From an uncultured Candidatus Saccharibacteria bacterium (GTDB taxonomy: Bacteria; Patescibacteriota; Minisyncoccia; UBA6257; 1-14-0-10-44-23): a DNA stretch of 48,532 nucleotides. The notes beneath the pieces were generated by a model, which saw nothing but the letters and a program-made list of their open reading frames with translations, was not told where the DNA came from and searched no databases. The stretch lies in the NCBI GenBank assembly GCA_964560145.1, contig CAZLKS010000002.1, positions 1 through 48,532 of the forward strand, read 5' to 3'. Both the position numbers and the translations under genes were made by a program. Of the stretch, positions 4,170 to 46,751 are shown piece after piece. Within the stretch, counting starts at the first letter, position 1; each line of letters begins with the position of its first letter.

Positions 4170-4212
4170 TCATCCTGACTGCATTGCCCCCGCATCATCC
4201 CGCCCTCTTCGT

Positions 4213-4266
4213 GTCATCCTGCTTATCCTGAACCTGCTAAAGGAAGCTCGTCGAAGGAACTTATCC
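4213..4266 (+). repeat. Small hairpin element of the GTCATYC...GAAnnATCC type (copy 1)
   Basis: gtcatcctg...cgaaggaacttatcc. It shares termini with the copies at 4594, 29276 (minus strand) and 32723. Confidence 0.4.
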
Positions 4267-4280
4267 ACCATATTGTCCCG

Positions 4281-4309
4281 TTGACGTTATACCCCCTAGG
4301 GGGTATACT
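4281..4309 (+). promoter_or_regulatory. csoR/cop promoter with a CsoR-type operator palindrome
   Basis: The arrangement is TTGACG (4281..4286), a 17-nt spacer, then TATACT (4304..4309). The spacer is filled by the perfect palindrome tataccccctagggggtata (4288..4307), a G/C tract flanked by AT as in known CsoR operators. Confidence 0.65.
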
Positions 4310-4317
4310 AATGGCAT

Positions 4318-4578
4318 ATGCAAAAACAACCACCGCTTATTCGTCGTCTTAAAATTATCGAGGGTCAGGTTCGTGGCCTACAGCGCATGGTAGAAGAAGA
4401 TAAGTACTGCATCGACATCATCACGCAAACCTCCGCCATCAAACAGTCACTTTCCAATATCGAAGACGTACTTATGGAGGGACACTTGGGACACTGTGCT
4501 GTGAATCAAATCAAAGCCGGTAAAACAGAGAAGGCTGTCAGCGAGATTCTTAAAGTATATAAATTAAAACGGAGGTAA
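4318..4578 (+). CDS. csoR: CsoR/RcnR-family metal-sensing transcriptional repressor
   Basis: IEGQVRGLQRMVEEDKYCIDIITQTSAIKQSL..GHLGHC is the typical CsoR helix bundle with Cys/His ligands. The gene lies upstream of copA. Confidence 0.9.
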   Translation: MQKQPPLIRRLKIIEGQVRGLQRMVEEDKYCIDIITQTSAIKQSLSNIEDVLMEGHLGHCAVNQIKAGKTEKAVSEILKVYKLKRR

Positions 4579-4593
4579 CTTTGCGAAGGCAAA

Positions 4594-4653
4594 GTTATCC
4601 TGCTCGCCCGCCGTATCCATAGGCGAAGGCGGGAGTCACCAGACGAAGAATCC
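4594..4653 (+). repeat. Small hairpin element of the GTCATYC...GAAnnATCC type (copy 2)
   Basis: gttatcctgctcg-cccgcc...ggcggg-...cgaagaatcc, with an inner 6-bp hairpin. Confidence 0.4.
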
Positions 4654-4672
4654 ATTCAATAAAAACAAATCC

Positions 4673-5239
4673 ATGAAAACAATCTCACTCCCCCTTTCGC
4701 TATCGTTCATAGCTGTCGCCCTTATCGCCGGTATCGCCATCGGTTACTTTGCCACGCCGGAGTATCGACAAAACATGTATGCAAGCGCTCAAATGAATCT
4801 TGGTCCGGCAGACCGCTGGATAGACGAGCGATATATCGATGCGATGATTGCTCATCACCGTGGCGCCATTTTAGTGGCGGAGCAGGCTTCAAAAAACTCA
4901 ACCCATAGTGAAATAAAGAATCTGGCCTCTGAAATCATCGCCAACGAGCCAAAGCTAATTACCGAACTCTATCAGTGGAAAAAGGACTGGTACGGCAGCG
5001 ACCGTACCGTTAAAGACCCCATTATGCCGAATCTTGGCTCAGCCGACAGCACCTTTGACCTGCGTTTCTTAAATGCAGTTATCTCCCACCACGAGGCAGG
5101 TATCATAATGACCAAAGAGGTTCGCCTTAAATCCACTCGCAGCGAAGTGTTAAATAATGCTGATGCCGTAGAGCAGTTCTTGGCTGGTGGCATTACGATG
5201 CTCAAGGGCTGGCGGACTAGCTGGTACAACGTTCAATAA
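4673..5239 (+). CDS. DUF305 family protein (copper-associated, duplicated HH motif)
   Basis: N-terminal TM/signal segment. Two repeats carry AHHRGAI and SHHEAGI, as in DUF305. Confidence 0.85.
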
Positions 5240-5250
5240 CCGCTTCGCAC

Positions 5251-7509
5251 ATGTATATGGAACAAAAAAATATTAAGGTTCACGGCATGCATTGTGCCAG
5301 TTGCGAACAAATCATCGCCAAGAAAGTCGGTAAGTTGCCCGGCGTAACAAGCGTGAGCGCAAGCTTTGCCAGCGAAACAGCCAGTATCTCTTTTGACCCT
5401 ACGCAGACGAGCATTGAATCGATGAACGAAACGCTTAAACAATACGGTTACTCTTTTGACGCGCCCAAACATGTTGACCATGCAGGTAACACAACTACCG
5501 GCACAGACCCCCATGCGAATCACGACTCGTCGCATGCACACACGCAGTTTGCCACGCCGATAACCGTCGCCGTTTTTCTCGCGATGGTCTGGGATATAGG
5601 ACACCGCTTCTATCCGGCAACTATTCCCGCCTTCCCTATCCCGATGGGCATTTTTAACCCAACCTCGCTTGCCCTCTCTACCGTCTTCCTCTTCTGGATT
5701 GGCCAGCCGTTCCTAGTCGCCGTCGGTCGCTTCATCCGCTACGGCACTGCTGGCATGGACACGCTCGTTGGCATCGGTACATCAGTCGCCTACCTCTACA
5801 GTGCGCTCGTTCTCCTCTTCCCCGCTTTTGGCAAACTGATTAACGCACCTGAAGGACTCTATTTTGATGTCACCATCGTTGTCATTGGTTTCATCACGCT
5901 TGGAAAATATTTAGAAGCAAACGCCAAACGTCGTACGGGAGATGCAATCAAGAAGCTGCTCGGTCTGCAGGTAAAGACCGCGCTCGTGCTTCGTAATGGT
6001 AAAGAACAAGAGCTGCCAATTGACCAGGTGGTTGCTGGTGACCTTGTACTTGTTCGACCTGGCATGAAGATTCCGGTGGACGGAGTCATCACCGAAGGCA
6101 GTTCGTCGATTGACGAGGCGATGCTCACTGGCGAACCAATGCCGGTAGACAAAAAATCTGGTGACAAGGTTTCCGCCGGAACGATTAATACGACTGGCTC
6201 GTTTACCATCAGAGCAATCGGCGTCGGCAATGACACGCTCCTCGCCCACATCATTAAGTTGGTGCAGGAGTCGCAAAGCTCTAAGGCACTGATTCAGCGC
6301 CTTGTCGACAGAATCTCTGGCATCTTCGTTCCAACTGTTCTAGTTATCGCCGCACTCACCCTCATCGCCTGGCTCGTTATTGGTAGCCAGTTCATGCCCT
6401 TTGGCAGTGCTCTTTCGCTCGGCATCATCTGCATGGTCGGCATTCTAGTCATCGCCTGCCCGTGTGCACTCGGACTTGCTACCCCAACCGCCATAATCGT
6501 TGGTGTCGGCAAAGGTGCCACCAGCGGCATTCTTATCAAGAACGCTGAAGCGCTAGAAAAACTGCACCACGTACGCGCTCTCATCATAGACAAAACTGGC
6601 ACGCTTACCGTCGGCAAACCATCAGTCACACACATCAATACGGATGGACTGACCGAAATCGAAGCACTAACGATTCTTGCCTCACTCGAAAAGTCGTCAG
6701 AGCATCCACTAGCACAGAGCATTGTTATCTATGCAGCCAGTAAAAACATACCGCTAAAATCAATAAGCAACTTTGAAAATCTTCCGGGTCGCGGCGTGCG
6801 TGGAATATTTGATGGCACACAGTACAGCGCCGGTGGCCCCGCTCTACTCGCAGAACTCGGGATAGCACTACCCGTAGCCGACGAAGCCACAAATCATGAG
6901 ACCCTCATATTCCTCGTTAAAGACAAAATGATTCTCGCCACTGCCAGCATTAGCGACACCGTGAAACCGGAGGCAAAAGAGGCGGTTCGCACTCTAACCA
7001 GTGCCGGCATCCGCGTGATTATGGCCACCGGCGATCACGAAGGCGCAGCCAAGCATGTTGCCGCTAAGCTAGGCATTACCGAATACATTGCTCAGGCACT
7101 TCCCGCCGACAAGCTCGCTAAGGTACGAGGTTTGCAAGCCGAAGGACTCTCCGTTGCAGTCGCAGGTGACGGCGTAAATGATGCACCCGCCCTGGCTGGA
7201 GCCGACGTGAGTATTGCCATGTCTACCGGCACCGATGTTTCGATTGAAGCCAGCGACATCACATTGCTTCGTGGCGACATCGCCAAAATCAGCCAGGCCA
7301 TTCGCCTTTCTCGCAGTACGATGCGCACAATCAAACAGAACCTCTTCTGGGCTTTCGCATATAATGTTATAGGCATCCCCCTCGCCGCTGGTCTGCTTTA
7401 CCCATTCCTCGGCATCCTACTCTCCCCTGCTTTCGCCGGCCTAGCCATGGCCTTCTCCTCAGTCTCGGTAGTCGCCAACTCACTTCGATTAAAAAGCGCT
7501 AAACTCTAA
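5251..7509 (+). CDS. copA: Copper-translocating P1B-type ATPase
   Basis: HMA domain [11 protein letters not shown] in the TM helix, DKTGTLT phosphorylation site, TGDH and GDGVNDAP. Confidence 0.95.
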
Positions 7510-15730: not shown

Positions 15731-16195
15731 TTATGAATCTTTTGCACTACCTTTCTGTACTGCGACGTGCTCAGTATGCAAATCCTTTAGAAGTTTCAAG
15801 ATGTCCTGCGGAAGGTTGTCAGACTTATATATATACATATCCACTCCCCGATCCTTCGCAAGTGCTCCATATTTTTCCTCGGGATAGCTCGAATACACAA
15901 TCACTTTGACTCCCTTGAGCTCAGGGTCATTTTTTATCCGCGAAATAAAATCAAGACCAACCTCCGGCGAGGTCTTAAACGAATCATCATGCTCTTTCTG
16001 CTTCATCACTAAGTCCAAGAAAACAAAGTCTGGACGCATTTTCTCATCAGACAAAAACCGCTCTGCAGCTTCTACGCCATCAGCAACGAGCAGGTCAAAC
16101 TCATTTCCCAAGTTATGCAACCAAAAAACATCGGTAAAAAACAACCGTGAAGTCACGTTACTTTCTACGAGTAAAAGCCTCGCTTTTGTATCCAT
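15731..16195 (-). CDS. Stand-alone response-regulator receiver (CheY-like) domain protein
   Basis: LLLVES..FVFLDLVM..VIVYSS is a receiver-fold pattern with no output domain. Its start overlaps the upstream stop (TAATG at 16193..16197). Confidence 0.7.
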   Translation of the reverse strand: MDTKARLLLVESNVTSRLFFTDVFWLHNLGNEFDLLVADGVEAAERFLSDEKMRPDFVFLDLVMKQKEHDDSFKTSPEVGLDFISRIKNDPELKGVKVIVYSSYPEEKYGALAKDRGVDMYIYKSDNLPQDILKLLKDLHTEHVAVQKGSAKDS

Positions 16196-19100
16196 TATGG
16201 GTTGATGTTCTTAATAAACTTAAAGGTATCGTTGAAGTTACCCAAGATTACGTCGAGGATTGATTGTGCCTCCTGCGGAGTGATGAGCGTTCGTGGACCA
16301 AGCTTCGCTTTGTTGCCGAACTTATCAACCGAGGTGATTAACATAGTATACACAGTTTTTGGCTTCAAGTTCAAAAGTGCAACGGTGTGGTTAAGGGACA
16401 AATTCTTAGTATCTTCGTAGCGACTCGTTAAATCGTTCACATCCTGAAGCGAACCCTCGCTATAGTCGACAATCGATGTCGCTGGTTCATCGGTGAGCCA
16501 CGAAACAACCGTTTGGATTCTGTCAGTTCTCCCTGGCACCACAAAGCTCTCTGCTTTAAAGTTTGAGATAACCGGCATACTCACATCACGCTTAATAACC
16601 ACCTTTACGGGTTCAGCTGAAAGAACATTGTCATCCGCGTTAACACCAGATACTCGAACTTCATAAGTCGCTCCCTGTGGAAGATTCTCGATGAGCATCT
16701 CGTGCTTGGTCACCATCGCAGCAGTATCTTTTTTATTTACTGCACCAGTCACCACGTCTTTATATTCAACGATTGAAGTCGCTGGAGCATCAGTAGTCCA
16801 AGAAACGATGAATGATGAGTTTGTCGTACCGCTGATAAATGGCTTTATCTTACCCGCTTTAGTCGTAAATGTTCTGTCGAGGCTCTTACCAAGCGTACCC
16901 ACGAGAGTTTTACTGCGTACTTGGTAATGATACAGCGTGTTTGGCGTCAAACCAGTTACAACTACTGAGTGCTCCTTAACCGCCTCTTCCTGTCCACTCT
17001 GTTCAACAGGGTACGGCTTATCCGCCTCTTCGCGATACTCCCCTTTTGTTGCAAGCCCAACGAGCGAAGATCCTTTTATGTTTGTCTTCCAACTTATCTT
17101 CGCCTCTGTTTCGGCAACTTCACTCACGCTGATATCAGAAATAGTTGGTGGCAACAATGAAGGCAGCGAGGACTCGATAATGTCACTGAGCTTACTCTGA
17201 AGATCGGCGATGTCTGATATTTGTTCTAAGTCCTCGTTAGCCTCTGCCACAAATCGAGTCGCAAAAATCTGAGATGGTGCAACACCAAGATTTCCTGCCG
17301 CATCAAAAGACTTCGCCACAAACGAGTACTGCCCGCCAAGTCTCAAGTTCGGTAAAACAATTACCGGGTCGCCGCTTAATTCCGTAGATCCAATAGTAAC
17401 AACCTTACCCAGCTCATCCCTGAGCTCCACGAAGGAACGTGACATTTCGTCGGTATGCCACGTCACCGTTGCCTGAAAACCTTTAATGTCTTTAACCTTA
17501 ACATTTGTTAATACTGGCGGCGTTGTGTCTCCTCTTGTTACGCCACCACCACCGCCATTATTGATGGCGTTCGTCAGACTTGATACAAGCACTACATAGT
17601 CTTGCGTTGTCGACACGGTCTGCGTAGACGATATTCCTTCATTCGAAGCTTGGTCTACCGAATGAGCTGCATAGAAATAATCCGTCTGCGCCGTTAAACC
17701 AGTGAGGGTAACGATGTGATAAATGGAAGGAGTCGAATCAAGCGTCGTGAGTGTCGAAAGACTGGTTGACGCGGTGCCATAGGCGACTTGCGAAGTCGAC
17801 AGTTCATCTGTCTGCCAGACAATGACTGCCGTGTTCGCTGCTACGACTGGTGTAGAAATATTAGAGATAACCGGTGCTTTTACGTCTTCTGTAGTGTTGA
17901 ATGAATAATACGATCTACCGTTATTATCAGTAGTGGTGTTACTCGATGCATCAGTTGACTCAACGTAGTAGTAATAGGTTGTTCCAGCAGTAAGTCCTGT
18001 CAGATTAACCTGGTGATGATACACCGTTGTCGAAGTTGGCCCACCAACCAAGCTCCCGGTGCCAGCAGTCTGTAGGTTTGATAAGAGTGCATTATCGGCG
18101 TACTTCACGATTGAGCTTGAGTCAATATTGGTGTCCCAAGAAATAGTAGCAATACTGTCGCTGATACTTGGCGTTGTAACGTTGCTGATAATCGGGCCAC
18201 CAGCGGTTGTGATAGTATACCCTGCTCCACCATTGCTATCGGTCGAGGCATTATCCAAAATGTCTGAAGAACGAACGCGATAATGATACAGCGTGTTCGG
18301 CGTTAAACCGGTAACCGTAACCACGTGACTCGTCACCATCGTACTCACCGTTTTTGACGAACCAAAACCGACATCGGGATCGGCGGAATACTGCACGACA
18401 GAGTCAGAAAGCTCATCGGTGTTCCAAAGAATAGTAAACCAGGTGCTCTGGGTTGTTGAGGCGGTAACCCCAGAAATAACTGGAGCAGCAAGGTCAGAGC
18501 CACCCTGTCCGTTAGGCAAATCACTCACCGCAGAGGTAAACGCCGAAGAATCACCATCACTATCAATGGCCTGAATCTTGTAATAGTAGGTTGTCGACGA
18601 TGCAAGGCCAGAATCGAGGTAGTAGTTGTAATTTGCGTCATTGATTGTGGTATAGAGACTATACGTCGAACCGCTATCAGTGGACCTGTATATCTTATAC
18701 GACGAGAACGCTGCACCAGATGCCGCAGAATACGCCTGCCAATAAACGAATTCCTTAAAATCGCTCGATGTCACACTCGAAACATCCTGAATTTCAAAAT
18801 TCTGTGGCGTTTGCGGCACCACGCCAGTTCTATTAGTTTGATTACTAAAAACGTCTTTGGCCTGCAAATACACTGTCGGATTAGAAACGTTTGCAAACGT
18901 CCAGTTGATAGTCTGACTTGTCGTTGAAGCGTTCACCGTTTGCCACTGACCACTAATTGCATTCAAGCCATCAGCTGACAAATCGGAATTATTAGAAAGT
19001 CGATACGTAATGTTGCTATTGTCGGTTATTGCAAGCGATAGCGTCCCCGAAGCCTGGTTGAGCGTATAGGTGCCCACCGACGGTGCCGCGGTATCCACCG

Positions 19101-21819
19101 TGAAGGCTGCAGACGTTGCCGAGGCGGTATTATTTGCTCCCTCGTTATCATTCGCAGTCACGCGTACTTTTGTCAGAGGCTTAAAAAGATTCGATATAGA
19201 ACTGGTTGCAGTCCAAGCAACGGTATACGTCGTATAAGAACTCTGATCAACCACCTTATTGCTCGTCGCCGCAGCAGCCAGAGCCCCGCTCGAGATTGCC
19301 GACCACGTACTGCCGTTGTCTACTGAATACTCGAAAGACGGAGTGATGTATCCGGGGTTCGCTGAGCCGCTTGAGGTATCTTGGTCGCGCACTGAATAAC
19401 TAATCGTTGCCGTGCCATCGCTGTTTTGCACACCGGAAACACCGCCAGCAGATGCAGTGGGATAATTCGCATCGAAATCAGGCGCAGCATTCACAACGTA
19501 CTTCACCAGTACGGACGAAAGAATTGCGGTTTGAGCCGAGTCTGTAGAAGCAAAGAATGCCTTGTACTGGAACCACTGATCACTTGACCCATCACGCAGT
19601 GTCGATGGAAACGTTTCGCTACCAGTCGGACTTACAAAATAAGAACCACTTGTGCCATCAGGCCCCATCCAGCCCGTGTAGGTCCCTGGAGATCCGCCAC
19701 TATCCGGTGCCGTGCGAAATTGAAACTTAACCGTCGCCTCTGAACTACTAGCAGCAGTCCAAATGATTTGAGAAAGGACGTTCGAGGAATCTCCACTGTT
19801 GTATGCCGATGAAGTCAGTGTAGTGCTCGCCGGCGTGTAACTAATCGTAATACTATCAAGCGATGGATTCGTAACACCATCGGAGCTGGTCATGTTGACG
19901 CGGTACTGAACATATCTATTGGTTCCTAACCCAGAAATCGAACCACCCGAAGCAACGCTAGTTTGCCAGCTGGTCCAGGTACCATCAGGAGTCGCCGTAT
20001 TCCCCGCCCGAACATCAACAGTAAGAGCTGAATAAGTTGGAACGCTGGAGGTATACGAAATAGTAGTTAATGGACTTGCCGTCGTCGCATCAAGCACTGC
20101 GGACGTATAGGTACCAGTCGTTGTATTTTGATACAGCATAGTAACTTCAGCGGCCGATAACGCACGCTTAAAGATACGCACTTCATCCTGCTTACCATTG
20201 AAGTACAGAGCGTCACTGCCTCCCTGACAAAGATACAACGGTATATTTGTAGCAGTGAGATTTCCCGAAGCGCTCGTCCAGGTCTGCGTCTGTGTTCCAT
20301 TTATATACAGACGTGTCGTGGCCCCGTCATAGGTGACAGTCATATGGGTCCAGGTTGCCTCTGGAAAAGTTGCAGTTGATGACAAGGTGACTCCTGCAAA
20401 CTGCATCTGTACGACTCGCTCCCCTGCAGTTCCACCGTTAAGAAGAATTCGGAAGGCTGCATCACCATATTGGCTTCTTGTCACAACCGACATCTGATTC
20501 AGACTCGAAGTTTTATACAGCCACGCGGAGTACGTAAAATCCCGCGTGATGCTATCAAGTGATGCAGAGTCCGGTGCGGTGACATAATCATTCGTTCCAT
20601 CACACACGAGTGCCTGCCCGACTACACCAGTAGTAAAGGTTGCACCATTTGTGAGTGTTCCAGTGTTACTATTACCACTTGCATCATTGGCTGTCGTGCC
20701 GCTGCCCTCGTCAAAGGTATACTCTACCACCTCTCCGTTCGCAGCAAACAATCTTGATACCTCAGTACTCGTGAGTGCGCGATTATAAATCCTTGCTTCA
20801 TCTATTGTTCCGGCAAATCCAGCGCTCGTGCCAGCCCCTCCCAACTTAAACGCCGTCATCGCCTCTGAATACATCGTCGTCGTACTCGCCACTTGCGCTC
20901 CATCAAAATAAACAGCCGTCGTACCGGTGTTACTGCCGGCATCATTCCACGTAAAAGCAAGATGATGCCACGTGCCGCTGGCAAAAGGTGTCAGCGAGTC
21001 ATTGAAGGTCATCTGTGCACCGGTATTTGCTGTATACGTCCATCCGAATTGCCAGGTGTTATTCGCCAGTCTGGTTCCTTTAATGCTGCTTCCGTTTCCA
21101 TTAGTGATACTCCAAAGACTGTGTGCCGTACTATCACCAGAAGCAAACGCCGGTTTCACCCAAAGCGAAATCGTACCTCCCTGCCCGGTACCATAGTTAA
21201 TCTGTGAAGCAGGTATACTCACGTAATCGTCGCCACCATCAAAAATCAGACCAGTCCCAATTTTACCGGAGCTCGTCCATCCACTACTGGCGGTTGCGGG
21301 GCTGGCTATTCCGTTCAGTGTGCCAGTATTTCCATTTCCTGTTCCATCGGCAACCGAAGTACCCGTATTCTCGCTAAACGTGAACTGACTCGTCATATCA
21401 GGAATCGCTCCCGAAAACCCAACGCTTCCAGCAGAACCCGATCCGTTAACAATCGTCGTACTATTCGTGCCAAGGTTAAAGTCCGTAGCCGTAGTCTGAG
21501 CTAGGCCAGAGCTCGAACTGGTAGCAGTATATATTCCGGTCGCACCGGCAGTAACCGTTGAATCCTTGCTGTCATACTTCGTCCAACCGCTTTGGTTAGA
21601 AGCATTCGTCGGCCGCGTCCCTCCATCTAATCCCCCCGCCCAACTCGTCTGCGTCCAAGTAAGCGTCGCAGCCTGAGCGAGTTCAAACTTAAAAACATCG
21701 GTAAGAACAATGCCGACGATTAAACTACCGACAAGAAGAGAACCAAAAACAGACCGCGTATGTTTATGCAGTAAAAATCGCCTTAAACGATGAGCTGAAC
21801 CAATGCGTATTCGGTGCAT
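16195..21819 (-). CDS. Giant (1874-aa) surface protein: N-terminal TM/signal, LamG domains, many Fn3-like repeats
   Basis: There are three LamG-like units (..GNGNTGTLNG..WHHLAFTW..VYFDGAQV..IDEARIYNRALTSTEV..). A long series of repeats of about 90-100 aa carries the motifs W.TDE.S.S.V.YG and LTGLTP.T.YHY.V.S.D (Fn3/purple-acid-phosphatase N-terminal type). Confidence 0.85.
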   Translation of the reverse strand: MHRIRIGSAHRLRRFLLHKHTRSVFGSLLVGSLIVGIVLTDVFKFELAQAATLTWTQTSWAGGLDGGTRPTNASNQSGWTKYDSKDSTVTAGATGIYTATSSSSGLAQTTATDFNLGTNSTTIVNGSGSAGSVGFSGAIPDMTSQFTFSENTGTSVADGTGNGNTGTLNGIASPATASSGWTSSGKIGTGLIFDGGDDYVSIPASQINYGTGQGGTISLWVKPAFASGDSTAHSLWSITNGNGSSIKGTRLANNTWQFGWTYTANTGAQMTFNDSLTPFASGTWHHLAFTWNDAGSNTGTTAVYFDGAQVASTTTMYSEAMTAFKLGGAGTSAGFAGTIDEARIYNRALTSTEVSRLFAANGEVVEYTFDEGSGTTANDASGNSNTGTLTNGATFTTGVVGQALVCDGTNDYVTAPDSASLDSITRDFTYSAWLYKTSSLNQMSVVTRSQYGDAAFRILLNGGTAGERVVQMQFAGVTLSSTATFPEATWTHMTVTYDGATTRLYINGTQTQTWTSASGNLTATNIPLYLCQGGSDALYFNGKQDEVRIFKRALSAAEVTMLYQNTTTGTYTSAVLDATTASPLTTISYTSSVPTYSALTVDVRAGNTATPDGTWTSWQTSVASGGSISGLGTNRYVQYRVNMTSSDGVTNPSLDSITISYTPASTTLTSSAYNSGDSSNVLSQIIWTAASSSEATVKFQFRTAPDSGGSPGTYTGWMGPDGTSGSYFVSPTGSETFPSTLRDGSSDQWFQYKAFFASTDSAQTAILSSVLVKYVVNAAPDFDANYPTASAGGVSGVQNSDGTATISYSVRDQDTSSGSANPGYITPSFEYSVDNGSTWSAISSGALAAAATSNKVVDQSSYTTYTVAWTATSSISNLFKPLTKVRVTANDNEGANNTASATSAAFTVDTAAPSVGTYTLNQASGTLSLAITDNSNITYRLSNNSDLSADGLNAISGQWQTVNASTTSQTINWTFANVSNPTVYLQAKDVFSNQTNRTGVVPQTPQNFEIQDVSSVTSSDFKEFVYWQAYSAASGAAFSSYKIYRSTDSGSTYSLYTTINDANYNYYLDSGLASSTTYYYKIQAIDSDGDSSAFTSAVSDLPNGQGGSDLAAPVISGVTASTTQSTWFTILWNTDELSDSVVQYSADPDVGFGSSKTVSTMVTSHVVTVTGLTPNTLYHYRVRSSDILDNASTDSNGGAGYTITTAGGPIISNVTTPSISDSIATISWDTNIDSSSIVKYADNALLSNLQTAGTGSLVGGPTSTTVYHHQVNLTGLTAGTTYYYYVESTDASSNTTTDNNGRSYYSFNTTEDVKAPVISNISTPVVAANTAVIVWQTDELSTSQVAYGTASTSLSTLTTLDSTPSIYHIVTLTGLTAQTDYFYAAHSVDQASNEGISSTQTVSTTQDYVVLVSSLTNAINNGGGGGVTRGDTTPPVLTNVKVKDIKGFQATVTWHTDEMSRSFVELRDELGKVVTIGSTELSGDPVIVLPNLRLGGQYSFVAKSFDAAGNLGVAPSQIFATRFVAEANEDLEQISDIADLQSKLSDIIESSLPSLLPPTISDISVSEVAETEAKISWKTNIKGSSLVGLATKGEYREEADKPYPVEQSGQEEAVKEHSVVVTGLTPNTLYHYQVRSKTLVGTLGKSLDRTFTTKAGKIKPFISGTTNSSFIVSWTTDAPATSIVEYKDVVTGAVNKKDTAAMVTKHEMLIENLPQGATYEVRVSGVNADDNVLSAEPVKVVIKRDVSMPVISNFKAESFVVPGRTDRIQTVVSWLTDEPATSIVDYSEGSLQDVNDLTSRYEDTKNLSLNHTVALLNLKPKTVYTMLITSVDKFGNKAKLGPRTLITPQEAQSILDVILGNFNDTFKFIKNINP

Positions 21820-21960: not shown

Positions 21961-21996
21961 GATGCGAACAAAGCCCTTATTGCGACGAACCGAAGG

Positions 21997-22083
21997 CGGA
22001 GGGGGTGAGATTCGAACTCACGAGACCTATTAGAGTCCAGCGGTTTAGTAAACCGCCGCATTCGACCGCTCTGCCACCCCTCC
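21997..22083 (-). tRNA. Class-II tRNA, Ser-like (G73, long variable arm), apparent anticodon ACU
   Basis: Acceptor GGAGGGG/CCCCTCC, D-arm GCA-GAGCGGTCGAA-TGC, anticodon stem GCGGT/ACCGC with loop TTACTAA, a 19-nt variable arm, T-arm GTGAG-TTCGAAT-CTCAC. Confidence 0.8.
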
Positions 22084-22147
22084 ATTTTCTACGGAACAAA
22101 CACTGCGGAGCCTGAAGGATTCCTTCGATGCTCATGCCAGTTCTTTG

Positions 22148-22234
22148 CGGAGGCGGAAGGATTCGAACCTTCGGACCGGTTTCCCGGTCAACTTCTTAGC
22201 AGGAAGCTGCATTCGACCGCTCTGCCACGCCTCC
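22148..22234 (-). tRNA. tRNA-Ser, anticodon GCU
   Basis: Acceptor GGAGGCG/CGCCTCC, anticodon stem GCTTC/GAAGT with loop CTGCTAA, a long variable arm, T-arm GAAGG-TTCGAAT-CCTTC, discriminator G. Confidence 0.9.
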
Positions 22235-39231: not shown

Positions 39232-39407
39232 ATATGCGTCTTTTTGCCCTTTGAAAACCTACCAGACCACCCTGTCTGCACCGAGCGCAGCGTCTGTGCA
39301 TCGGGAGCTCCCCCGTCAAGGGAGCGACACATAGGGTGGGCTGAAGCTCCCTGTGTGATTAACGGGCCCATTGGGCTTTCAACACCTCACACGGGAGGGA
39401 CAACACA

Positions 39408-41690
39408 GTGTCGCAGAATGAAGATGAGAAGGTTGCTCTGAGTCTCGAGGCTCTTCCCATCACCGCGTTCCGGGATGAGATCGTCACGACGATCCGGGAG
39501 AACCCGGTCACCATCATCGTCGCCGACACCGGCGCCGGCAAGTCCACGCAGATTCCGAAGTACCTCCTCAAGGAGGGAGCGACGGTTCTCGTGACACAGC
39601 CCCGGCGTCTGGCGGCTCGAACGGTCTCCGCGCGCATCGCGTGGGAGATCAATCAGGAGCTGGGAGAGGAGGTCGGCTTCCGTACGGCGCACGAGCACCG
39701 ACACGGACCGCTGACTCGCTGCCTCTTCGTCACCGATGGACTCGCACTCGTGCGCAGTCTCCTCGGCCGGGGGCAGACCGATGTCCTCGTAATCGACGAG
39801 GTCCACGAACAGAACCTCAACGTCGAGGTGCTGCTCGCCTGGGCCAAGCTCCAGCTCTCGCAAGAATCGAAGTTCCGGGTCGTGGTGATGAGCGCAACGA
39901 TGGAGGCCGAGAAGATTGCGGCCTACTTCGATGGCGCCCCCATCATGAACATCCCGGGGCGGCTGTTCCCAGTGGAAGAGCGAGATCCAAGCCCGGACAT
40001 CCTGGACGATGTCGTCGCACTCCTCAAGGAGGGACGAAATGTCCTCGTGTTCCAGCCTGGAAAACAGGAAATCCAGGTGATGGTGGAGAAGATCCGGGAA
40101 CAAATTCCGGGCATCGCAGAGATTCTCCCCCTGCACGGCGAACTCGAACCGAACGAACAGGCGAAGGCCTTCCGTTCCTACGACAAGCCCAAGTGCGTGG
40201 TGTCAACCAACGTGGCACAGACCAGTGTCACGATTCCCGACATCGACGCCGTCGTCGACGGTGGCGAGGAGAAGCGTATCGAGGTGCGAGATGGCGTGGA
40301 GGGACTCTATCTCCGGCCTATCTCGCTCGCGGACAGCAAGCAGCGCAAGGGTCGGGCCGGACGTACCAAGCCCGGCATCTACGTGAACCACTGCCCGCAC
40401 CGCGAACAACCCGATTACCCGACGCCGGAGATCGAGCGGCTCCTACTCGATCACGTCGTCCTGCGTCTTGCCGAAGCTGGCCTCGACGCAGCGGAGTTGG
40501 AGTTCCTCCACCAGCCGAACCACGAGAAAATCGTGGAGGCGAAGGAGACTCTGCGGGCTCTCGGATGTCTCGACCACGAGGGCGCCGTGACCGAGATGGG
40601 CAGCGTCATCGCGCGTATGCCAGTCTCGGTTCAGTACGGCCGCATGATCATCGAAGCCGACCGCCTCGGCGTGGTCGACGACGTGATCACCATCGCTGCG
40701 TTGCTCGAAAGCGGTGCGATCACCGCTCGCGACAATGAGCGCTGGCAGGATCTGTGCCGAAACGAGCACACGAGCGACGTACTGGCTCAGCTCGCGATCG
40801 TCCACGCGATCTACGGCAAGAAACACAACCACGAGAGGCTCGTGGAGCTGGGCATCCACCCCAAGGCCTACGGTCGGTTCCTCGAGACGCGCAAGCACCT
40901 CCAGGAAATCGTTCGCCCTCTGGTGCGGAACCCAGGCTCCACCCAGGACCGCGAAGCGATCATCCAGTGCATCGTCACCGGAATGATCAACCACCTCTTC
41001 ACGCGGGTGCAATACTCGCGGCGGGGAGCGTCGTACGTGAACGGTACGAGTACAGCGATGCGGCGCATCGATCGCCGCTCGGTCCTGCAGTACGATAGCC
41101 CCGAACTCTTGGTCGGGGTGCCGTTCGACCTGAACGTGCGCGACCGCGACTTCGCGGAATTGACGAACACGATCAACCTCATCACCTGGGGAACGGCCGT
41201 GACCGTCGAACAACTTCTCGCAACCGCCCCGCACCTGCTGCGGATTGCGGAAAGTGAGATTCGCTACGAGTACTACGGAGACTCGATTTCCTGGACCCGC
41301 AGTGTCTACTTCGGGGACAGGGTAATCAAGACCGAGTACATGGTGAGCAAGACGCACCCGGAAAAGCAGCGCCTCAAGGCAGCCTGGCTGGCGGATCCGA
41401 TAAACCGCCGTGCATACAACCTTGATGCCCTGCCGGAACCGGCGAGGACCCCCTGGACGGAGACGCAGGAGGTGGTGCCGAGCTACGCACCCGCATCGCG
41501 CCCCGCCTACCAGCCGGTCGTGACCACCCACACCCTCACCCACGCCCAAAAGCGCACCTACCAGTGCGCCTGCGGACAGACGGTGGAGATGGGAGTCATC
41601 GCCTACGCCGACCTCAAGTCGGGCCGCATCAAGACGACGAAGCTCCGCTGCCCCAAGAGCAGTCAGGAATTCGTCGTTTCGCTGGAGTAG
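39408..41690 (+). CDS. DEAH/RHA-family ATP-dependent helicase (HrpA/HrpB-like, with HA2 and OB regions), G+C-rich (island c)
   Basis: Motif I ADTGAGKST, motif II VIDEVHEQ, SAT (MSAT), and motif VI QRKGRAGR. HA2-like segment LRALGCLDHEGAVTEMGSVIARMPVSVQYGRMII. C-terminal Cys pairs (CACG...CPKS). GTG start after GGGAGGG. GC3 is very high. Confidence 0.9.
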   Translation: MSQNEDEKVALSLEALPITAFRDEIVTTIRENPVTIIVADTGAGKSTQIPKYLLKEGATVLVTQPRRLAARTVSARIAWEINQELGEEVGFRTAHEHRHGPLTRCLFVTDGLALVRSLLGRGQTDVLVIDEVHEQNLNVEVLLAWAKLQLSQESKFRVVVMSATMEAEKIAAYFDGAPIMNIPGRLFPVEERDPSPDILDDVVALLKEGRNVLVFQPGKQEIQVMVEKIREQIPGIAEILPLHGELEPNEQAKAFRSYDKPKCVVSTNVAQTSVTIPDIDAVVDGGEEKRIEVRDGVEGLYLRPISLADSKQRKGRAGRTKPGIYVNHCPHREQPDYPTPEIERLLLDHVVLRLAEAGLDAAELEFLHQPNHEKIVEAKETLRALGCLDHEGAVTEMGSVIARMPVSVQYGRMIIEADRLGVVDDVITIAALLESGAITARDNERWQDLCRNEHTSDVLAQLAIVHAIYGKKHNHERLVELGIHPKAYGRFLETRKHLQEIVRPLVRNPGSTQDREAIIQCIVTGMINHLFTRVQYSRRGASYVNGTSTAMRRIDRRSVLQYDSPELLVGVPFDLNVRDRDFAELTNTINLITWGTAVTVEQLLATAPHLLRIAESEIRYEYYGDSISWTRSVYFGDRVIKTEYMVSKTHPEKQRLKAAWLADPINRRAYNLDALPEPARTPWTETQEVVPSYAPASRPAYQPVVTTHTLTHAQKRTYQCACGQTVEMGVIAYADLKSGRIKTTKLRCPKSSQEFVVSLE

Positions 41691-41714
41691 TCTTCCAGCC
41701 CCCACAGACCCAAA

Positions 41715-42992: not shown

Positions 42993-43003
42993 ACCCTTTC
43001 ATT

Positions 43004-45808
43004 CTACCACTTCTCAACAATCAGCATCCTCTTCCCTTGCCACTCCGGCAACTTACTCCAAATCTCTTCGGTCACAAACGGCATAAATGGGTGAAGTGTC
43101 TTAAGTGAGCCCGTTAAAATATACCAGAGCATCGCCTGAGCACTTGCGCGAGTAGTAGGGTCAACCAACCGTGGCTTCGCCTCCTCAATGACTTTATCGG
43201 CGAAGGTGTGCCAGACGTAGTGATACATACCCTCGGCTGAGGCATGGAAGTTAAACGCCTCAATACCTGCGGTGCACTCCGCCTTAGCCTTTTCAAACTC
43301 GGCAACTGCTGCCTTGTCGGTTTCATTGGTTATCTCCCCTGCTGCATCTGGATTAAATCCATCAAAGTTCATCAGCACGAACCGGCTGATGTTCCAAATC
43401 TTGTTAGCAAAATTCTTATAACCACGCACTTTATCCTCCGAAAGCTTCTGGTCATTGCCAGCAGAGGTACCAATAATCAGCGACAAACGCGTGGCGTCTG
43501 CACCATACTTGTCAGCCAGTTCTAGCGGATCAAGAGCATTGCCCAGTGACTTACTCATCTTCTGCCCTTTAGCATCACGAACCAGCCCATGCAGGTATAC
43601 CTGCTTGAAAGGCACCTCGCCGAGCAGGAATCCACTCATGAGAATCATGCGTGCCACCCAGAAGAACAAAATATCATAGCCGGTCTCGAGCACCGCCGTT
43701 GGATGAAACTTACCCAAATCACTTTCGGGATTAATGCTTCCATCTGCCAACAAGGTAGGCTTGCCCTGAGCATCGCCGAAGGGCCAACCGAGCGTTGAGA
43801 ACGTCCAAAGTCCGGAACTGAACCAGGTGTCGAGAGTGTCCGGGTCCTGCTCAAACAAATCGCTGCCACACTTCGCACACTCGTGATGCACATCAAACGA
43901 AAGCACTGCACCATTCTTGACCGAATCTCGCGCAAGCATTTCGTCCGGCGTCAAACCATGAATGTTCTTGAGAACCGTTCGAAGAGTTCCAGCGTGTGTA
44001 ACTATCAATACATTCTTTGCATGATGGTCGCCCTTATACTTCTTGATTGCTTCCCAGGCTCGCTTCTCCACATCAGCATAACTCTCGCCATTTGGTGCTT
44101 TTTTATCATAGAAGAACAATCCGCCGTACAACGCATCAACATCGGTGTGCGGCACTCCTTCGGCGTCGCCGTAGTTACGCTCGCGTAGCGCTGCATCAAA
44201 AATTATCTTCTCTTTTGGAAAACCAATCTTCTCAGCGATAATCTCAGCAGTTTCACGCGTACGCTTTAAATCAGAAGAAATAATAATATCTATATTTTTC
44301 GCCTTAAGCTGATCCGCCGTAGCAGCCGCCTGTGCCCGGCCGTTCTCGTTGAGTCCCTCCTGTGCATGCCCGATAAAACGTTTCTGCACATTCCAATCAG
44401 TCTCGCCATGTCGAACGAAGAACCATCTACCCTTCACCTCTGGCAAAATTTTTGCTGCACCACAGCCGGCACAGTACCACACCGGAATCCGGTGTCCGTA
44501 CCAAATCTGTCGGCTAATACACCAATCTCGTAGGTTATTTATCCAGTGGAAGTAAACGGCATTAAATCGGTCTGGTGTAATTGAAATATCACCTCCCTGC
44601 ACCGCTGCCAGCATTAATTCCTTCAAGGTAACCTCACTACCCGAGGCGATACCCTTGATGTTGGAATGCGGAATCTTAAATTTTTTATTAACCGCCACAA
44701 ACCATTGCAGTTTCGGAAGTGGCTCAATAATACCACCCGTTCGTTCGGCGGTAGAAACATTCTGCTTAATCTTTTCTTCTTTAATCAAAAGCCCTTTGTC
44801 ACGAAGCCACTGTGCCACGAGTTCGCGTGCCTCGGTTGTTTTTTTGCCAACTAAAAGCGGACCAGCGAGCTCGGTCATCTTTGCGTACCCGTTAATTACC
44901 ACGCGGTCGGTCGGCAGATTATTCTTTTGTGCAATATCCCAGTCAGTCGTACTATGCGCCGGGGTCACACCAAGTGCGCCCGTGCCAAACTCTGGATCAA
45001 CTCCCTCGTCGCCTACCACGGCAATCGTAAGCGGAACGCCAGCGAAGTCAGCAATGGTAAACGTCTGGCCGATATACTGCTTCCACTTCCCTTCCGGATG
45101 TACGGCAATGGCTACGTCGCCCACTTTTGTTTCTAAGCGAGTCGTTGCAATTTCAATCGGACACTCCGGTCCGTACCGAAAGGTGTACAGCGTCGCCTCA
45201 CGCTCCTCATACACAATCTCGTCATCAGAAATAGTCGTCTGCCCTTTCGGATCCCAGTTTACGATGCGATGACCACGATAAATGAGTCCGGCCTCGTACA
45301 TCCGCTTAAACGCCTCGTGCACGGCTTTCGTGCGTGGTTCGTCTAACGTAAACGCCTCACGACTCCAATCCAGCGAGGCACCCATGCGCTTCATCTGATT
45401 AACAATAGTGTTGTGGCTTCGCGTTGCAAATTCATTCACGCGACGCAAAAGCTCCTCGCGACCTAAATCATACCGACTCTTGCCCTCTTTTTTGGAAATC
45501 TCTTTTTCAACTTTGGACTGCGTCGCAATAGCCGCGTGGTCGGTGCCTGGTAGCCAGAGCGTGGCGTCCCCCTTCATGCGATGATAACGAATTAAAATAT
45601 CCTGAATCGCGAGCATTGCAGCGTGACCCATGTGCAGAGTGCCAGTGACGTTGGGCGGAGGCAGAATAATAGCAAATGGCTTATGGCTTATGGCGGATGG
45701 CAAGTCACTAGAAGACTTGTCGGGATTAAAAAATCCGGACTCCTCCCACTTCTTATAGAGAGGCCCTTCGGCGTCTTTTGGTTCGTAGTTTTTAGGTAAT
45801 TCAGTCAT
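43004..45808 (-). CDS. valS: Valyl-tRNA synthetase with an inserted histidine-phosphatase domain
   Basis: PPPNVTGTLHMGHA (HIGH), TTRLETKVGD, WCISRQIWYGHRIP, DTLDTWFSS and KMSKSLGN. Residues about 461-642 are a PGM/PhoE-like domain (see findings). Confidence 0.95.
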   Translation of the reverse strand: MTELPKNYEPKDAEGPLYKKWEESGFFNPDKSSSDLPSAISHKPFAIILPPPNVTGTLHMGHAAMLAIQDILIRYHRMKGDATLWLPGTDHAAIATQSKVEKEISKKEGKSRYDLGREELLRRVNEFATRSHNTIVNQMKRMGASLDWSREAFTLDEPRTKAVHEAFKRMYEAGLIYRGHRIVNWDPKGQTTISDDEIVYEEREATLYTFRYGPECPIEIATTRLETKVGDVAIAVHPEGKWKQYIGQTFTIADFAGVPLTIAVVGDEGVDPEFGTGALGVTPAHSTTDWDIAQKNNLPTDRVVINGYAKMTELAGPLLVGKKTTEARELVAQWLRDKGLLIKEEKIKQNVSTAERTGGIIEPLPKLQWFVAVNKKFKIPHSNIKGIASGSEVTLKELMLAAVQGGDISITPDRFNAVYFHWINNLRDWCISRQIWYGHRIPVWYCAGCGAAKILPEVKGRWFFVRHGETDWNVQKRFIGHAQEGLNENGRAQAAATADQLKAKNIDIIISSDLKRTRETAEIIAEKIGFPKEKIIFDAALRERNYGDAEGVPHTDVDALYGGLFFYDKKAPNGESYADVEKRAWEAIKKYKGDHHAKNVLIVTHAGTLRTVLKNIHGLTPDEMLARDSVKNGAVLSFDVHHECAKCGSDLFEQDPDTLDTWFSSGLWTFSTLGWPFGDAQGKPTLLADGSINPESDLGKFHPTAVLETGYDILFFWVARMILMSGFLLGEVPFKQVYLHGLVRDAKGQKMSKSLGNALDPLELADKYGADATRLSLIIGTSAGNDQKLSEDKVRGYKNFANKIWNISRFVLMNFDGFNPDAAGEITNETDKAAVAEFEKAKAECTAGIEAFNFHASAEGMYHYVWHTFADKVIEEAKPRLVDPTTRASAQAMLWYILTGSLKTLHPFMPFVTEEIWSKLPEWQGKRMLIVEKW

Positions 45809-45849
45809 GCGATAGATAGATTCTAGCGGAAAAAGTGTAACTCGGATAC

Positions 45850-45878
45850 TTGACAGATAAGCAAAATATATATAAGAT
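45850..45878 (+). promoter_or_regulatory. Promoter-like element of island d
   Basis: TTGACA (45850..45855), a 17-nt spacer, then TAAGAT (45873..45878), in AT-rich DNA between the valS start and the G+C-rich ORF. Confidence 0.5.
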
Positions 45879-46751
45879 ATGTTCCATCACTACCGTGAGA
45901 TGCCGATCAGACGGCTTAAGCAAATGCATCTGAAAAACGTGCCGGTTTGGCACACGAGGTCTCCCATGATCGGTGAAACGAGTGGCGTCGCAAAGACCGT
46001 CTCGCCCCCCAACACGGGGAACGCACTCCTCATGATGAGCGGTCTCAAGCAGTTCGAGCTGGATCAGCTCGCTCTCGAGCTGAAGGATCCGAGCGCCAAG
46101 CACCGTCTGGGCCGCGTCGACGACGCGATTCGGACCGACCTGCTCTACCCCGAGGATGCAGATACGCAGGAGCTCCGGGCCATCATGGGGCTCAACTTCA
46201 TCGGCCGGCGCGAGATGGCGATGCTCACCAACCAGATGGGCGATCCGGTGATGGCGCGCAAGCCGCTCTACCCGAAGGCGCTCGTCCTCGCCCACAAGGA
46301 CGACCACCTCCTCATCTGCTTCCCGCGAATGTCGGGGGAGGAGCTGGAGAAGTACGTGGGGCCGCTGATGGCTCCCAACCAGGACCTCGCAGGCATCCTG
46401 GCGAAGGACGGAGGCTACGGCGTCTACAACGGATGGAAGCTCATCCGTAAGACGCCGATTCCGGGCTCGGCGAAGAAGACAGCCGAACAGCAGATCTCCA
46501 TGAAGGATGGCCTGCGATACGCAACTCCCTCCCTCACCCAGACGCTCTTCGTGATGGCGACGGTTCACAAGCTGAACCAAGGGCAGATGTTCGCGAAGCA
46601 GTTCGTGAGAGTCGGGCTCAACCATCGCGATGACGAATTCTACGCCGTCGGCTGGCCCACGCCGGCGGGAATCGAGGTCCGCCAGTTCTGGGCGGACGAC
46701 CGCAAGAACAACCTCTTCGCGACCGGCTTCTTTCACGAACCGTCTCGATAG
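45879..46751 (+). CDS. Hypothetical protein, G+C-rich (island d)
   Basis: High GC3 in this frame, and the protein composition is balanced. The antisense 311-aa ORF is Arg/Leu/His-rich and looks like an artefact. The likely true start is the ATG at 45966 (GAGG 8 nt upstream), where the composition shifts. No family recognised. Confidence 0.6.
   Translation: MFHHYREMPIRRLKQMHLKNVPVWHTRSPMIGETSGVAKTVSPPNTGNALLMMSGLKQFELDQLALELKDPSAKHRLGRVDDAIRTDLLYPEDADTQELRAIMGLNFIGRREMAMLTNQMGDPVMARKPLYPKALVLAHKDDHLLICFPRMSGEELEKYVGPLMAPNQDLAGILAKDGGYGVYNGWKLIRKTPIPGSAKKTAEQQISMKDGLRYATPSLTQTLFVMATVHKLNQGQMFAKQFVRVGLNHRDDEFYAVGWPTPAGIEVRQFWADDRKNNLFATGFFHEPSR

Follow-up and report, generated by a model that had tools for sequence, protein, structure and literature searches.

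Aminoacyl-tRNA synthetases are among the most conserved enzymes and, to our knowledge, those of bacteria rarely carry unrelated catalytic domains. Here we describe a valyl-tRNA synthetase (ValRS) of an uncultured Candidatus Saccharibacteria bacterium in which a domain of the histidine-phosphatase superfamily is nested in the CP3 zinc knuckle, and show that the same architecture recurs in ValRS and isoleucyl-tRNA synthetase (IleRS) across the Candidate Phyla Radiation (CPR). The stretch of DNA analyzed, hereafter the window, comprises 48,532 nucleotides (contig CAZLKS010000002.1 of assembly GCA_964560145.1). The valS gene occupies positions 43004 to 45808 on the reverse strand and the nested domain, of the PhoE/CobC-like type, positions 43883 to 44428 on the same strand (residues 461-642 of the product). 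Hundreds of ValRS and IleRS in public data are built alike, and the copy in the window belongs to a large family that has yet to be characterised. As a whole, our best explanation, which includes an accessory phosphomonoesterase acting on a synthetase-linked substrate, is given a probability of about 0.5.

The valS open reading frame (ORF), with its stop codon at 43004-43006, encodes a valine--tRNA ligase of 934 amino acids. Despite the interruption the protein exceeds the cut-offs of the NCBIfam ValRS equivalog NF004349 (840.4 bits against 704) and of TIGR00422 (782.9 bits against 612.1), the latter matching in two stretches with the insert between them. Pfam tRNA-synt_1 covers residues 17-448 (E = 8.5e-124), Anticodon_1 is also matched, and the class I signatures are all in place: LHMGHA, the HIGH-type motif, at residues 58-63 (45620-45637), DTLDTWFSS at residues 657-665 (43814-43840) and KMSKS at residues 750-754 (43547-43561), all read on the reverse strand. 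The best sequence match in the PDB is the ValRS of Thermus thermophilus, 1GAX (phmmer E = 1.7e-158). According to these motifs and profiles, residues 1-445 (44474-45808) comprise the first half of the Rossmann fold, the CP1 editing domain and CP2, up to GHRIPVWY; on the evidence of Pfam, motifs and the 1GAX alignment, residues 648-934 (43007-43867) comprise its second half with KMSKS and the anticodon-binding domain. The gene order TsaD-ValRS-PrsW-HSP20 is common to three related loci (L001, L002 and L003), with or without the insert, and the gene content of the window is CPR-like, with all named relatives of the ValRS coming from Parcubacteria or Patescibacteria lineages. Because this order stays constant irrespective of the insert, and with the ValRS models above their curated cut-offs as further evidence, we assign valS as the orthologous housekeeping ValRS gene of a bacterium that, to judge from its relatives, is of the Parcubacteria (CPR) type.

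The interruption falls at a precisely definable point. The alignment to 1GAX stops at T. thermophilus residue 425 (WYCEDCQAVNV) and restarts at residue 437 (SCEACGS), so that some 11 residues at the tip of the CP3 knuckle (CxxC...CxxC) have given way to the insert. The N-terminal half of the knuckle, C446-A-G-C449, is followed by an 11-residue linker (AAKILPEVKG...; 44429-44473, reverse strand) and aligns to WYCEDCQAVNV; the C-terminal half, C644-A-K-C647 (43868-43879, reverse strand), aligns to SCEACGS. The sequence before the insert is WYCAGCGAAKILPEVKG (residues 444-460) and that after it, ECAKCGSDLF..., starts at residue 643. Between them PF00300 (His_Phos_1) is matched with 161.9 bits against a cut-off of 21.7 (E = 1.9e-47; residues 463-644, profile positions 2-185 of 194), so that a nearly full-length domain is present. 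Its signatures are FVRHGETDWN (residues 464-473), SSDLKRTRETA (511-521), LRERNYGDAEG (541-551) and LIVTHAGTLR (601-610).

These observations bear out the original prediction, which had been made from the letters and open reading frames alone and had proposed a histidine phosphatase inside ValRS. The PF00300 match confirms the domain, every motif quoted in its support lies where it was said to lie, and 43883-44428 corresponds exactly to residues 461-642. The claim that the insert is in frame and splits the two CxxC halves of the knuckle agrees with the 1GAX alignment and with an alignment of the junctions in 87 ValRS. The composition claim stands as well, the GC content of the insert (0.48-0.51) being the same as in the remainder of valS.

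Trivial origins of the insert were considered and rejected. The domain has no intein-like termini, as had been predicted (it runs from R461 to H642, followed by E643), and no intein or Hint family is found among the Pfam matches of the ValRS. A mobile element with terminal repeats was discarded, as the only repeats flanking the insert in the DNA are short and at chance level. Misassembly or a frameshift is excluded by the recurrence of the junctions in 86 other independently assembled protein clusters from NCBI, JGI, ENA and Logan, and JGI fragments 100% identical across the insert exist (P0241).

The catalytic core of the superfamily is complete in the nested domain. Sequence conservation points to R466-H467-G468 (44405-44413, reverse strand) as the RHG motif with the predicted phospho-accepting histidine, R516 of SSDLKRTRETA (44261-44263) as the second phosphate-binding arginine, invariant in all embedded classes, E543 of the LRERNYG motif (44180-44182) as the predicted general acid/base, and H605 of LIVTHAG (43994-43996) as the second catalytic histidine. 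By analogy with the family, the phosphate would be bound by R466 and R516 and transferred to H467, with H605 in an assisting role and E543 as the acid/base. The suggestion that the catalytic signatures are intact holds well beyond the window: R466, H467, R516, E543 and H605 are invariant in 87 of 87 ValRS-embedded copies, whose mean domain identity is only about 41%, and G468, N473, S512, E575 and R583 are nearly invariant. In the first copies of IleRS (HP1) all five catalytic residues are invariant (120/120); in the second copies (HP2, n = 119) four are found in every sequence and the equivalent of H605 in 118.

Two further lines of evidence speak for a maintained, folded domain. Against L002, the closest insert-bearing relative, the proportion of nonsynonymous differences (pN) in the insert is 0.14 and that of synonymous differences (pS), which is saturated, 0.79; the adjoining ValRS body gives the same pN (0.156). 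The insert is thus under purifying selection. An AlphaFold2 model built on a 78-sequence alignment has a mean pLDDT of 92.5 and a pTM of 0.88, with a pLDDT of 92-98 in the insert, and the top Foldseek match for the chain is 1gax_A (TM 0.70-0.75). We conclude that the nested domain is folded as an enzyme and under selection, and there is good support for regarding it as a putatively active phosphomonoesterase.

Among solved structures the nearest by sequence are the small Schizosaccharomyces pombe phosphoglycerate mutase (PGM) 1fzt (2e-21) and PhoE, 1ebb/1h2e (about 5e-19 over 154 residues), followed by 4pz9, a mycobacterial glucosyl-3-phosphoglycerate phosphatase, and CobC. No curated sub-family claims the domain. 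The cofactor-dependent mutase (dPGM) model TIGR01258 (pgm_1) gives 63.1 bits, short of its cut-off of 81.7, with an alignment confined to profile positions 4-105 of 245. The substrate residues that define dPGM are the arginine pair in WRRSYD, the lysine in GLNK and HGNSLR; relative to 1fzt, RRSYD is replaced by LFFYD, the lysine of GLNK by histidine and HGNSLR by HAGTLR. The alpha-ribazole phosphatase model TIGR03162 (CobC) gives 121.8 bits, below its equivalog cut-off of 162.9. A defence-system phosphatase was rejected, since there is no match to the PADLOC models and the sole PHROG match, 12933, is a group of unknown function. The domain is best described as a generic PhoE/CobC-like phosphomonoesterase, closest to the PhoE type, and not as a mutase. 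The distinction matters because automated JGI names suggest a mutase and because PGM is apparently missing from several shallow Parcubacteria clades, which may have forms too divergent to be detected (Jaffe et al. 2020, PMC7304191).

The insert alone was also used to search a set of 5.8 billion proteins. The matches were free-standing phosphatases only, the best at 48% identity; the search omitted embedded copies and hence is unusable for counting them. The closest free-standing relative with DNA available, P0122 (48% identity), lies on a CPR-like Logan contig from SRR33270670 (L004), in an rpsB-tsf neighbourhood with free-standing His_Phos_1 genes at 4190-4834 and 6130-6747 and a LAGLIDADG ORF. 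The neighbourhoods of the closest free-standing homologues, P0121 and P0122, were uninformative.

The original prediction treated the architecture as if it were singular, and in this it was not borne out. A search with the whole protein yielded 120 close, Parcubacteria ValRS clusters; with the window protein added, the phosphatase is present in 87 of 121, while 33 have a short linker at that place and one has another insert. These tallies come from score-ranked lists, which favour insert-bearing proteins. The survey of ValRS orthologues for the same insertion point that had been proposed thus recovered the same junctions in 86 other clusters. Named relatives belong to Candidatus Liptonbacteria, Kaiserbacteria, Colwellbacteria, Nomurabacteria, Sungbacteria, the 'Parcubacteria group' and the 'Patescibacteria group'; their annotation goes no further than 'class I tRNA ligase family protein' or 'valyl-tRNA synthetase'. 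The usual layout is GHRIPVWY, CxxC, about 10 amino acids, the domain of about 180 amino acids, CxxCG, about 6 amino acids and DxDTLDTWFSS. Most insert-bearing ValRS keep the CxxC pairs; a few lineages, e.g. P0107, lack the cysteines but carry the domain. Tandem arrangements in ValRS also emerged when the insert was used for an exhaustive HMMER search, with two copies in P0358 and P0392 and at least four in P0242, the tandem copies of which match TIGR00249 (SixA). When species-representative genomes were scanned, most of the hits were free-standing phosphatases of no relation, the single-sequence patterns being too specific to the window.

The same HMMER search found IleRS with two copies of the domain (TIGR00392 761-857 bits against a cut-off of 621), and every long host examined in it was either ValRS or IleRS. 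The best 120 relatives of one such IleRS, all from Peregrinibacteria and about 1,430-1,650 amino acids long, all contain PF00300 and DUF5915; the set includes the complete genome of Ca. Peribacter riflensis, and three of its members carry three copies. The JGI pipeline names some of these proteins 'isoleucyl-tRNA synthetase/bisphosphoglycerate-dependent phosphoglycerate mutase', '/PhoE' or '/SixA'. The scan of species-representative genomes brought up a single nested copy in the IleRS of two Saccharibacteria metagenome-assembled genomes (MAGs) and one Ca. Paceibacter MAG (TIGR00392 810-906 bits). The array in IleRS sits between WGTPLPIW and EVLDCWFESGS, that is, in the loop homologous to the ValRS site, and placement of His_Phos_1 in CP3, between the P.W(Y/F) motif and the motif of the second Rossmann half, is found in the 87 ValRS and in the IleRS alike. 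A second insertion site was seen in P0268, a Logan IleRS of 1,419 amino acids, in which copy one lies in CP3 (residues 493-683) and copy two (residues 870-1055) downstream of DCWFESG, between the catalytic core and the anticodon-binding domain.

The CP3 loop accepts linkers of 18-45 amino acids, the knuckle on its own, an ASCH domain, or phosphatase domains numbering from one to at least four. In the ValRS of CPR bacteria the tip of the knuckle thus seems to be a hot spot at which domains are inserted. The ASCH case is P0090, a ValRS relative of 864 amino acids with an insert of about 130 amino acids between the CP3 CxxC pairs that matches PF04266 marginally (E = 3e-4, 21.8 bits against a cut-off of 21.2). 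ASCH has a PUA-like fold and is RNA-associated.

The embedded domains do not form a single group. In an identity matrix and a neighbour-joining (NJ) tree of about 210 domains (all trees here are NJ trees on uncorrected alignments), the ValRS inserts form one main clade, the first copies of IleRS a separate one, and the second and third copies of IleRS a third clade beside the tandem ValRS copies. Identity among the embedded classes is 28-32%, and between these classes and free-standing phosphatases 29-34%. As they are no closer to one another than to free-standing enzymes, the data taken at face value suggest independent captures, more than once, by two paralogous synthetases and at the same loop.

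Comparison of closely related alleles suggests how the domain comes and goes. The closest ValRS, P0001 (730 amino acids, on the Logan contig L001), shares 93% identity in the body, mostly 85-100% over residues 1-445 (100% in the last window before the junction) and 79-100% over residues 648-934, and carries the 18-amino-acid linker RGEELHVGSVPNGDGWIQ in place of knuckle and phosphatase. Nucleotide homology to L001 (85% in the N-terminal half, 91% in the C-terminal half) ends at residue 445 and restarts at about residue 653. Given a synonymous divergence (dS) of 0.5-0.7 in the body, the event can be called recent only in a relative sense. The short linker has homologues of 18-19 amino acids in many other clades, e.g. 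KGEEIFVGTEAPQGDGWAQ and RNDELYVGTEAPEGEGWEQ. Further switching pairs are P0060/P0113 (body identity 0.91) and P0021/P0100 (0.89), and the cassette states are interleaved throughout the NJ tree of the ValRS body.

The domain thus behaves as a self-contained, swappable cassette, with alleles holding either knuckle plus phosphatase or a short cysteine-free hairpin. Because deletion cannot regenerate a linker homologous to those of other clades, the two states must, on this comparison, have been exchanged by homologous recombination between valS alleles. Similar valS alleles exist with or without the phosphatase, and the comparison accordingly demonstrates, as far as alleles can, that aminoacylation itself is independent of the nested domain. 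No adaptation of the body seems to be needed, since close ValRS and the gene order are unchanged whether the cassette is there or not.

Exchange may reach beyond the cassette. The nucleotide identity between the window and L001 is 85-91% in valS, 75% in tsaD and 66% in prsW (42996-45826), and L003 is about equally distant throughout (74-80%, 75% and 67%, respectively). The valS body itself may have been exchanged between lineages.

Both partners of the fusion have known counterparts. T. thermophilus ValRS (1GAX/1IVS) resembles the window ValRS in family, in knuckle position (WYCxxC...CxxCG...DxDxxDTWFSS) and in the HIGH and KMSKS motifs, but its knuckle tip has about 11 residues where the window ValRS holds an enzyme domain of 182 amino acids. 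The two differ also at the C-terminus: the window protein ends at the equivalent of T. thermophilus residue 705 of 862 and is without the C-terminal coiled-coil tRNA-binding arm (PF10458) present in the latter. A few insert-bearing relatives (about 1,070-1,097 amino acids) retain this arm. Relative to 1GAX the window ValRS also has an extra loop of about 16 amino acids following GWP (about residues 677-692). The phosphatases PhoE of Geobacillus stearothermophilus (1EBB/1H2E), CobC, GpgP and PspA belong to the same superfamily, are of similar minimal size and share the RHG, Arg, Glu and His residues, but they are free-standing, whereas the window domain is nested and falls below every curated sub-family cut-off. 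The CPR IleRS, e.g. P0457 of Ca. Peribacter riflensis, are likewise class Ia enzymes with intact catalytic residues in the same CP3 loop; unlike the ValRS they are of type 2 with DUF5915, usually hold two divergent tandem domains, sometimes three, and draw on other phosphatase lineages.

Synthetases with extra catalytic domains are already recognised as a kind, e.g. the curated family ileS_w_GNAT (NCBIfam NF040702), which is also a bacterial class Ia synthetase. Its accessory fold is GNAT and not a histidine phosphatase, and the window ValRS scores 155 against its cut-off of 1999. A CobC-like domain fused to a nucleic-acid enzyme is known from RNase H/acid phosphatase (NF005567, Rv2228c type), with which the insert scores 95.9 bits, below the cut-off of 326; there the fusion with RNase H is end to end, not nested in a synthetase. 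A full-text literature search, which does not cover most subscription journals, found no paper describing a histidine phosphatase inside ValRS or IleRS, in agreement with the original prediction that no synthetase with such a domain had been described. The architecture is visible in public protein sets and has been half-noticed by automated pipelines, yet is undescribed in searchable papers.

What might a phosphatase do inside a synthetase? The original prediction had put forward, as inference, a nucleotide, a phosphorylated tRNA end or a metabolite as what it might act on. We favour the view that it is tethered to ValRS and IleRS because its substrate meets these synthetases. The domain would free the 3' end of a tRNA, a nucleotide or the synthetase itself of a phosphate or pyrophosphate that blocks it, and thus serve as an accessory repair or counter-toxin function. 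That the substrate is linked to the synthetase in one of these ways is a committed guess, towards which the evidence points weakly and which we put a little short of even. It is suggested by what looks like convergent capture, more than once, at a single loop of two paralogues that charge tRNA, by the retention of arrays of divergent intact copies, by the ASCH domain as an alternative at the same site in P0090, and by a pattern of presence, absence and copy number that is typical of accessory, conflict-related modules.

Several observations weigh against a synthetase-linked substrate. With net charges of -1.4 to +0.2 the embedded domains are close to neutral, unlike a strongly basic RNA binder, the shift in this comparison being small and confounded by taxonomy. 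We know of no member of the histidine-phosphatase superfamily that acts on RNA ends, and the nearest characterised relatives, PhoE, GpgP, CobC and PspA, are small-molecule phosphatases. From the topology of the Rossmann fold, CP3 may face away from the active site. No PADLOC defence model matches the nested phosphatase. The independent captures are deduced from crude NJ trees and identity statistics at about 30% identity. Finally, the ValRS body is the same with or without the domain and so appears unadapted to hosting it, which fits an uncoupled passenger equally well.

Such a passenger is the foremost alternative, doubtful in our view but to be taken seriously. The domain would then be a broad-specificity, PhoE-type small-molecule phosphatase sitting in a permissive loop and uncoupled from aminoacylation; its substrates would be sugar phosphates, phospho-amino acids or nucleotides, and the fusion would only secure its expression in a very small genome. 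The small-molecule activity of the nearest characterised relatives and the near-neutral charge of the domain agree with this, as does the swapping of a self-contained domain in and out of an unchanged ValRS body; free-standing homologues moreover exist on the CPR-like contig L004. CP3 has been described in published accounts as a structurally variable, peripheral subdomain of class Ia enzymes, on the side opposite CP2 (e.g. PMC7191050), and its loop, as listed above, tolerates anything from a linker or bare knuckle to ASCH or one to four phosphatases. An uncoupled passenger leaves unexplained, however, why no hosts but ValRS and IleRS have come to light to date and why the loop is almost always the same one, why different phosphatase lineages have arrived there, and what maintains arrays of two to four intact copies. 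Fast on/off switching among close relatives would also be unusual for a core metabolic step. All readings other than a synthetase-linked substrate or an uncoupled passenger are, taken together, unlikely.

A protein phosphatase working in cis would dephosphorylate the synthetase or a neighbouring translation factor and so cancel inhibition by a HipA-like toxin kinase. It is a special case of the explanation we favour that predicts a different substrate, and we rate it as quite improbable. The superfamily does include protein phosphatases (SixA, Sts and PGAM5), class I synthetases are inactivated by HipA-family kinases close to their KMSKS region, the SixA model TIGR00249 matches the tandem copies of P0242, and the patchy, fast-switching and copy-variable distribution resembles that of conflict-related modules. 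On the other hand, no kinase targeting ValRS or IleRS is known or was found here, the loci examined (L001-L003) have no conserved kinase or toxin neighbour, PADLOC gives no match, and the sequence is closest to small-molecule phosphatases.

Still less probable is that the domain supplies a missing glycolytic enzyme, the cofactor-dependent PGM of those Parcubacteria that seem to be devoid of one. The idea draws on the apparent PGM gap in several shallow clades (PMC7304191), on 1fzt as the best PDB sequence match and on the mutase names that JGI gives to the IleRS versions. It conflicts with the sub-threshold, partial TIGR01258 alignment and with the replacement of dPGM residues in the comparison with 1fzt. 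Presence that flips between near-identical relatives is unlikely for an essential glycolytic step, and the two or three divergent copies per IleRS in Peregrinibacteria equally speak against it. The notion that the domain is a structural or tRNA-binding appendage devoid of catalysis, or else an artefact of assembly or annotation, is effectively refuted by a catalytic set kept over about 330 embedded copies (with the H605 equivalent lost in one IleRS HP2), by the purifying selection on the insert, by the same junctions in 86 other clusters from four sources, and by an intact reading frame with ValRS models above cut-off.

As to the rest of the window, the HSP20-PrsW-valS block lies between two GC-rich islands (39400-41700 and 45850-46750), in which the GC content is 60-65% compared with about 49% outside them. 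The first holds a DEAH/HrpA-like helicase ORF of 760 amino acids (39408-41690, forward strand), and the second, between valS and tsaD, an ORF of 290 amino acids without a Pfam match (45879-46751, forward strand); L001 and L003 have unrelated small ORFs at the valS-tsaD position. The islands may have been laterally acquired. Two adjacent tRNA-Ser genes on the reverse strand (21995-22083 and 22147-22234) have the anticodons GCU and ACU according to ARAGORN and share 83% of alignment columns, differing mainly in the anticodon stem, the variable arm and the T stem. A34 is unusual in a serine tRNA. An ORF of 1,874 amino acids (16195-21819, reverse strand) with Laminin_G_3, fibronectin-III and purple-acid-phosphatase N-terminal-type domains probably encodes a large surface protein, and L002 carries a similar Laminin_G_3 giant gene nearby.

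The wider survey shows that in large parts of the CPR the nested phosphatase is no oddity but the rule: it affects ValRS and IleRS at the same loop, involves at least three phosphatase lineages and reaches from one to at least four copies per protein. The finding therefore merits interest at the level of the family, not as a peculiarity of the window. It has practical consequences for annotation, as the NCBI pipeline downgrades these ValRS to 'class I tRNA ligase family protein' and the phosphoglycerate mutase labels of JGI can mislead reconstructions of CPR glycolysis. The presence/absence polymorphism of near-identical valS alleles is also a natural experiment on the function of the domain.

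CPR organisms have minimal genomes and depend on hosts. Recurrent convergent fusion is classic evidence of a functional link, and from it would follow a phosphate-removing step tied to the charging of tRNA-Val and tRNA-Ile or to protection of the enzyme. In its most specific form, which we offer as speculation with the odds well against it, CPR ValRS and IleRS would possess a built-in repair phosphatase that strips a 3'-phosphate or pyrophosphate from the tRNA, or a phosphate added to the synthetase by a toxin. The tRNA lesions would come from toxin nucleases or from tRNA pyrophosphokinases of the toxSAS type, the divergent pairs of domains would act in sequence, and the same enzyme would charge the repaired tRNA at once, while the module would be swapped among related strains as a recombination cassette. 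If true, the histidine-phosphatase superfamily would gain an activity hitherto unknown in it, and the module would be of a new kind, protecting translation against toxins.

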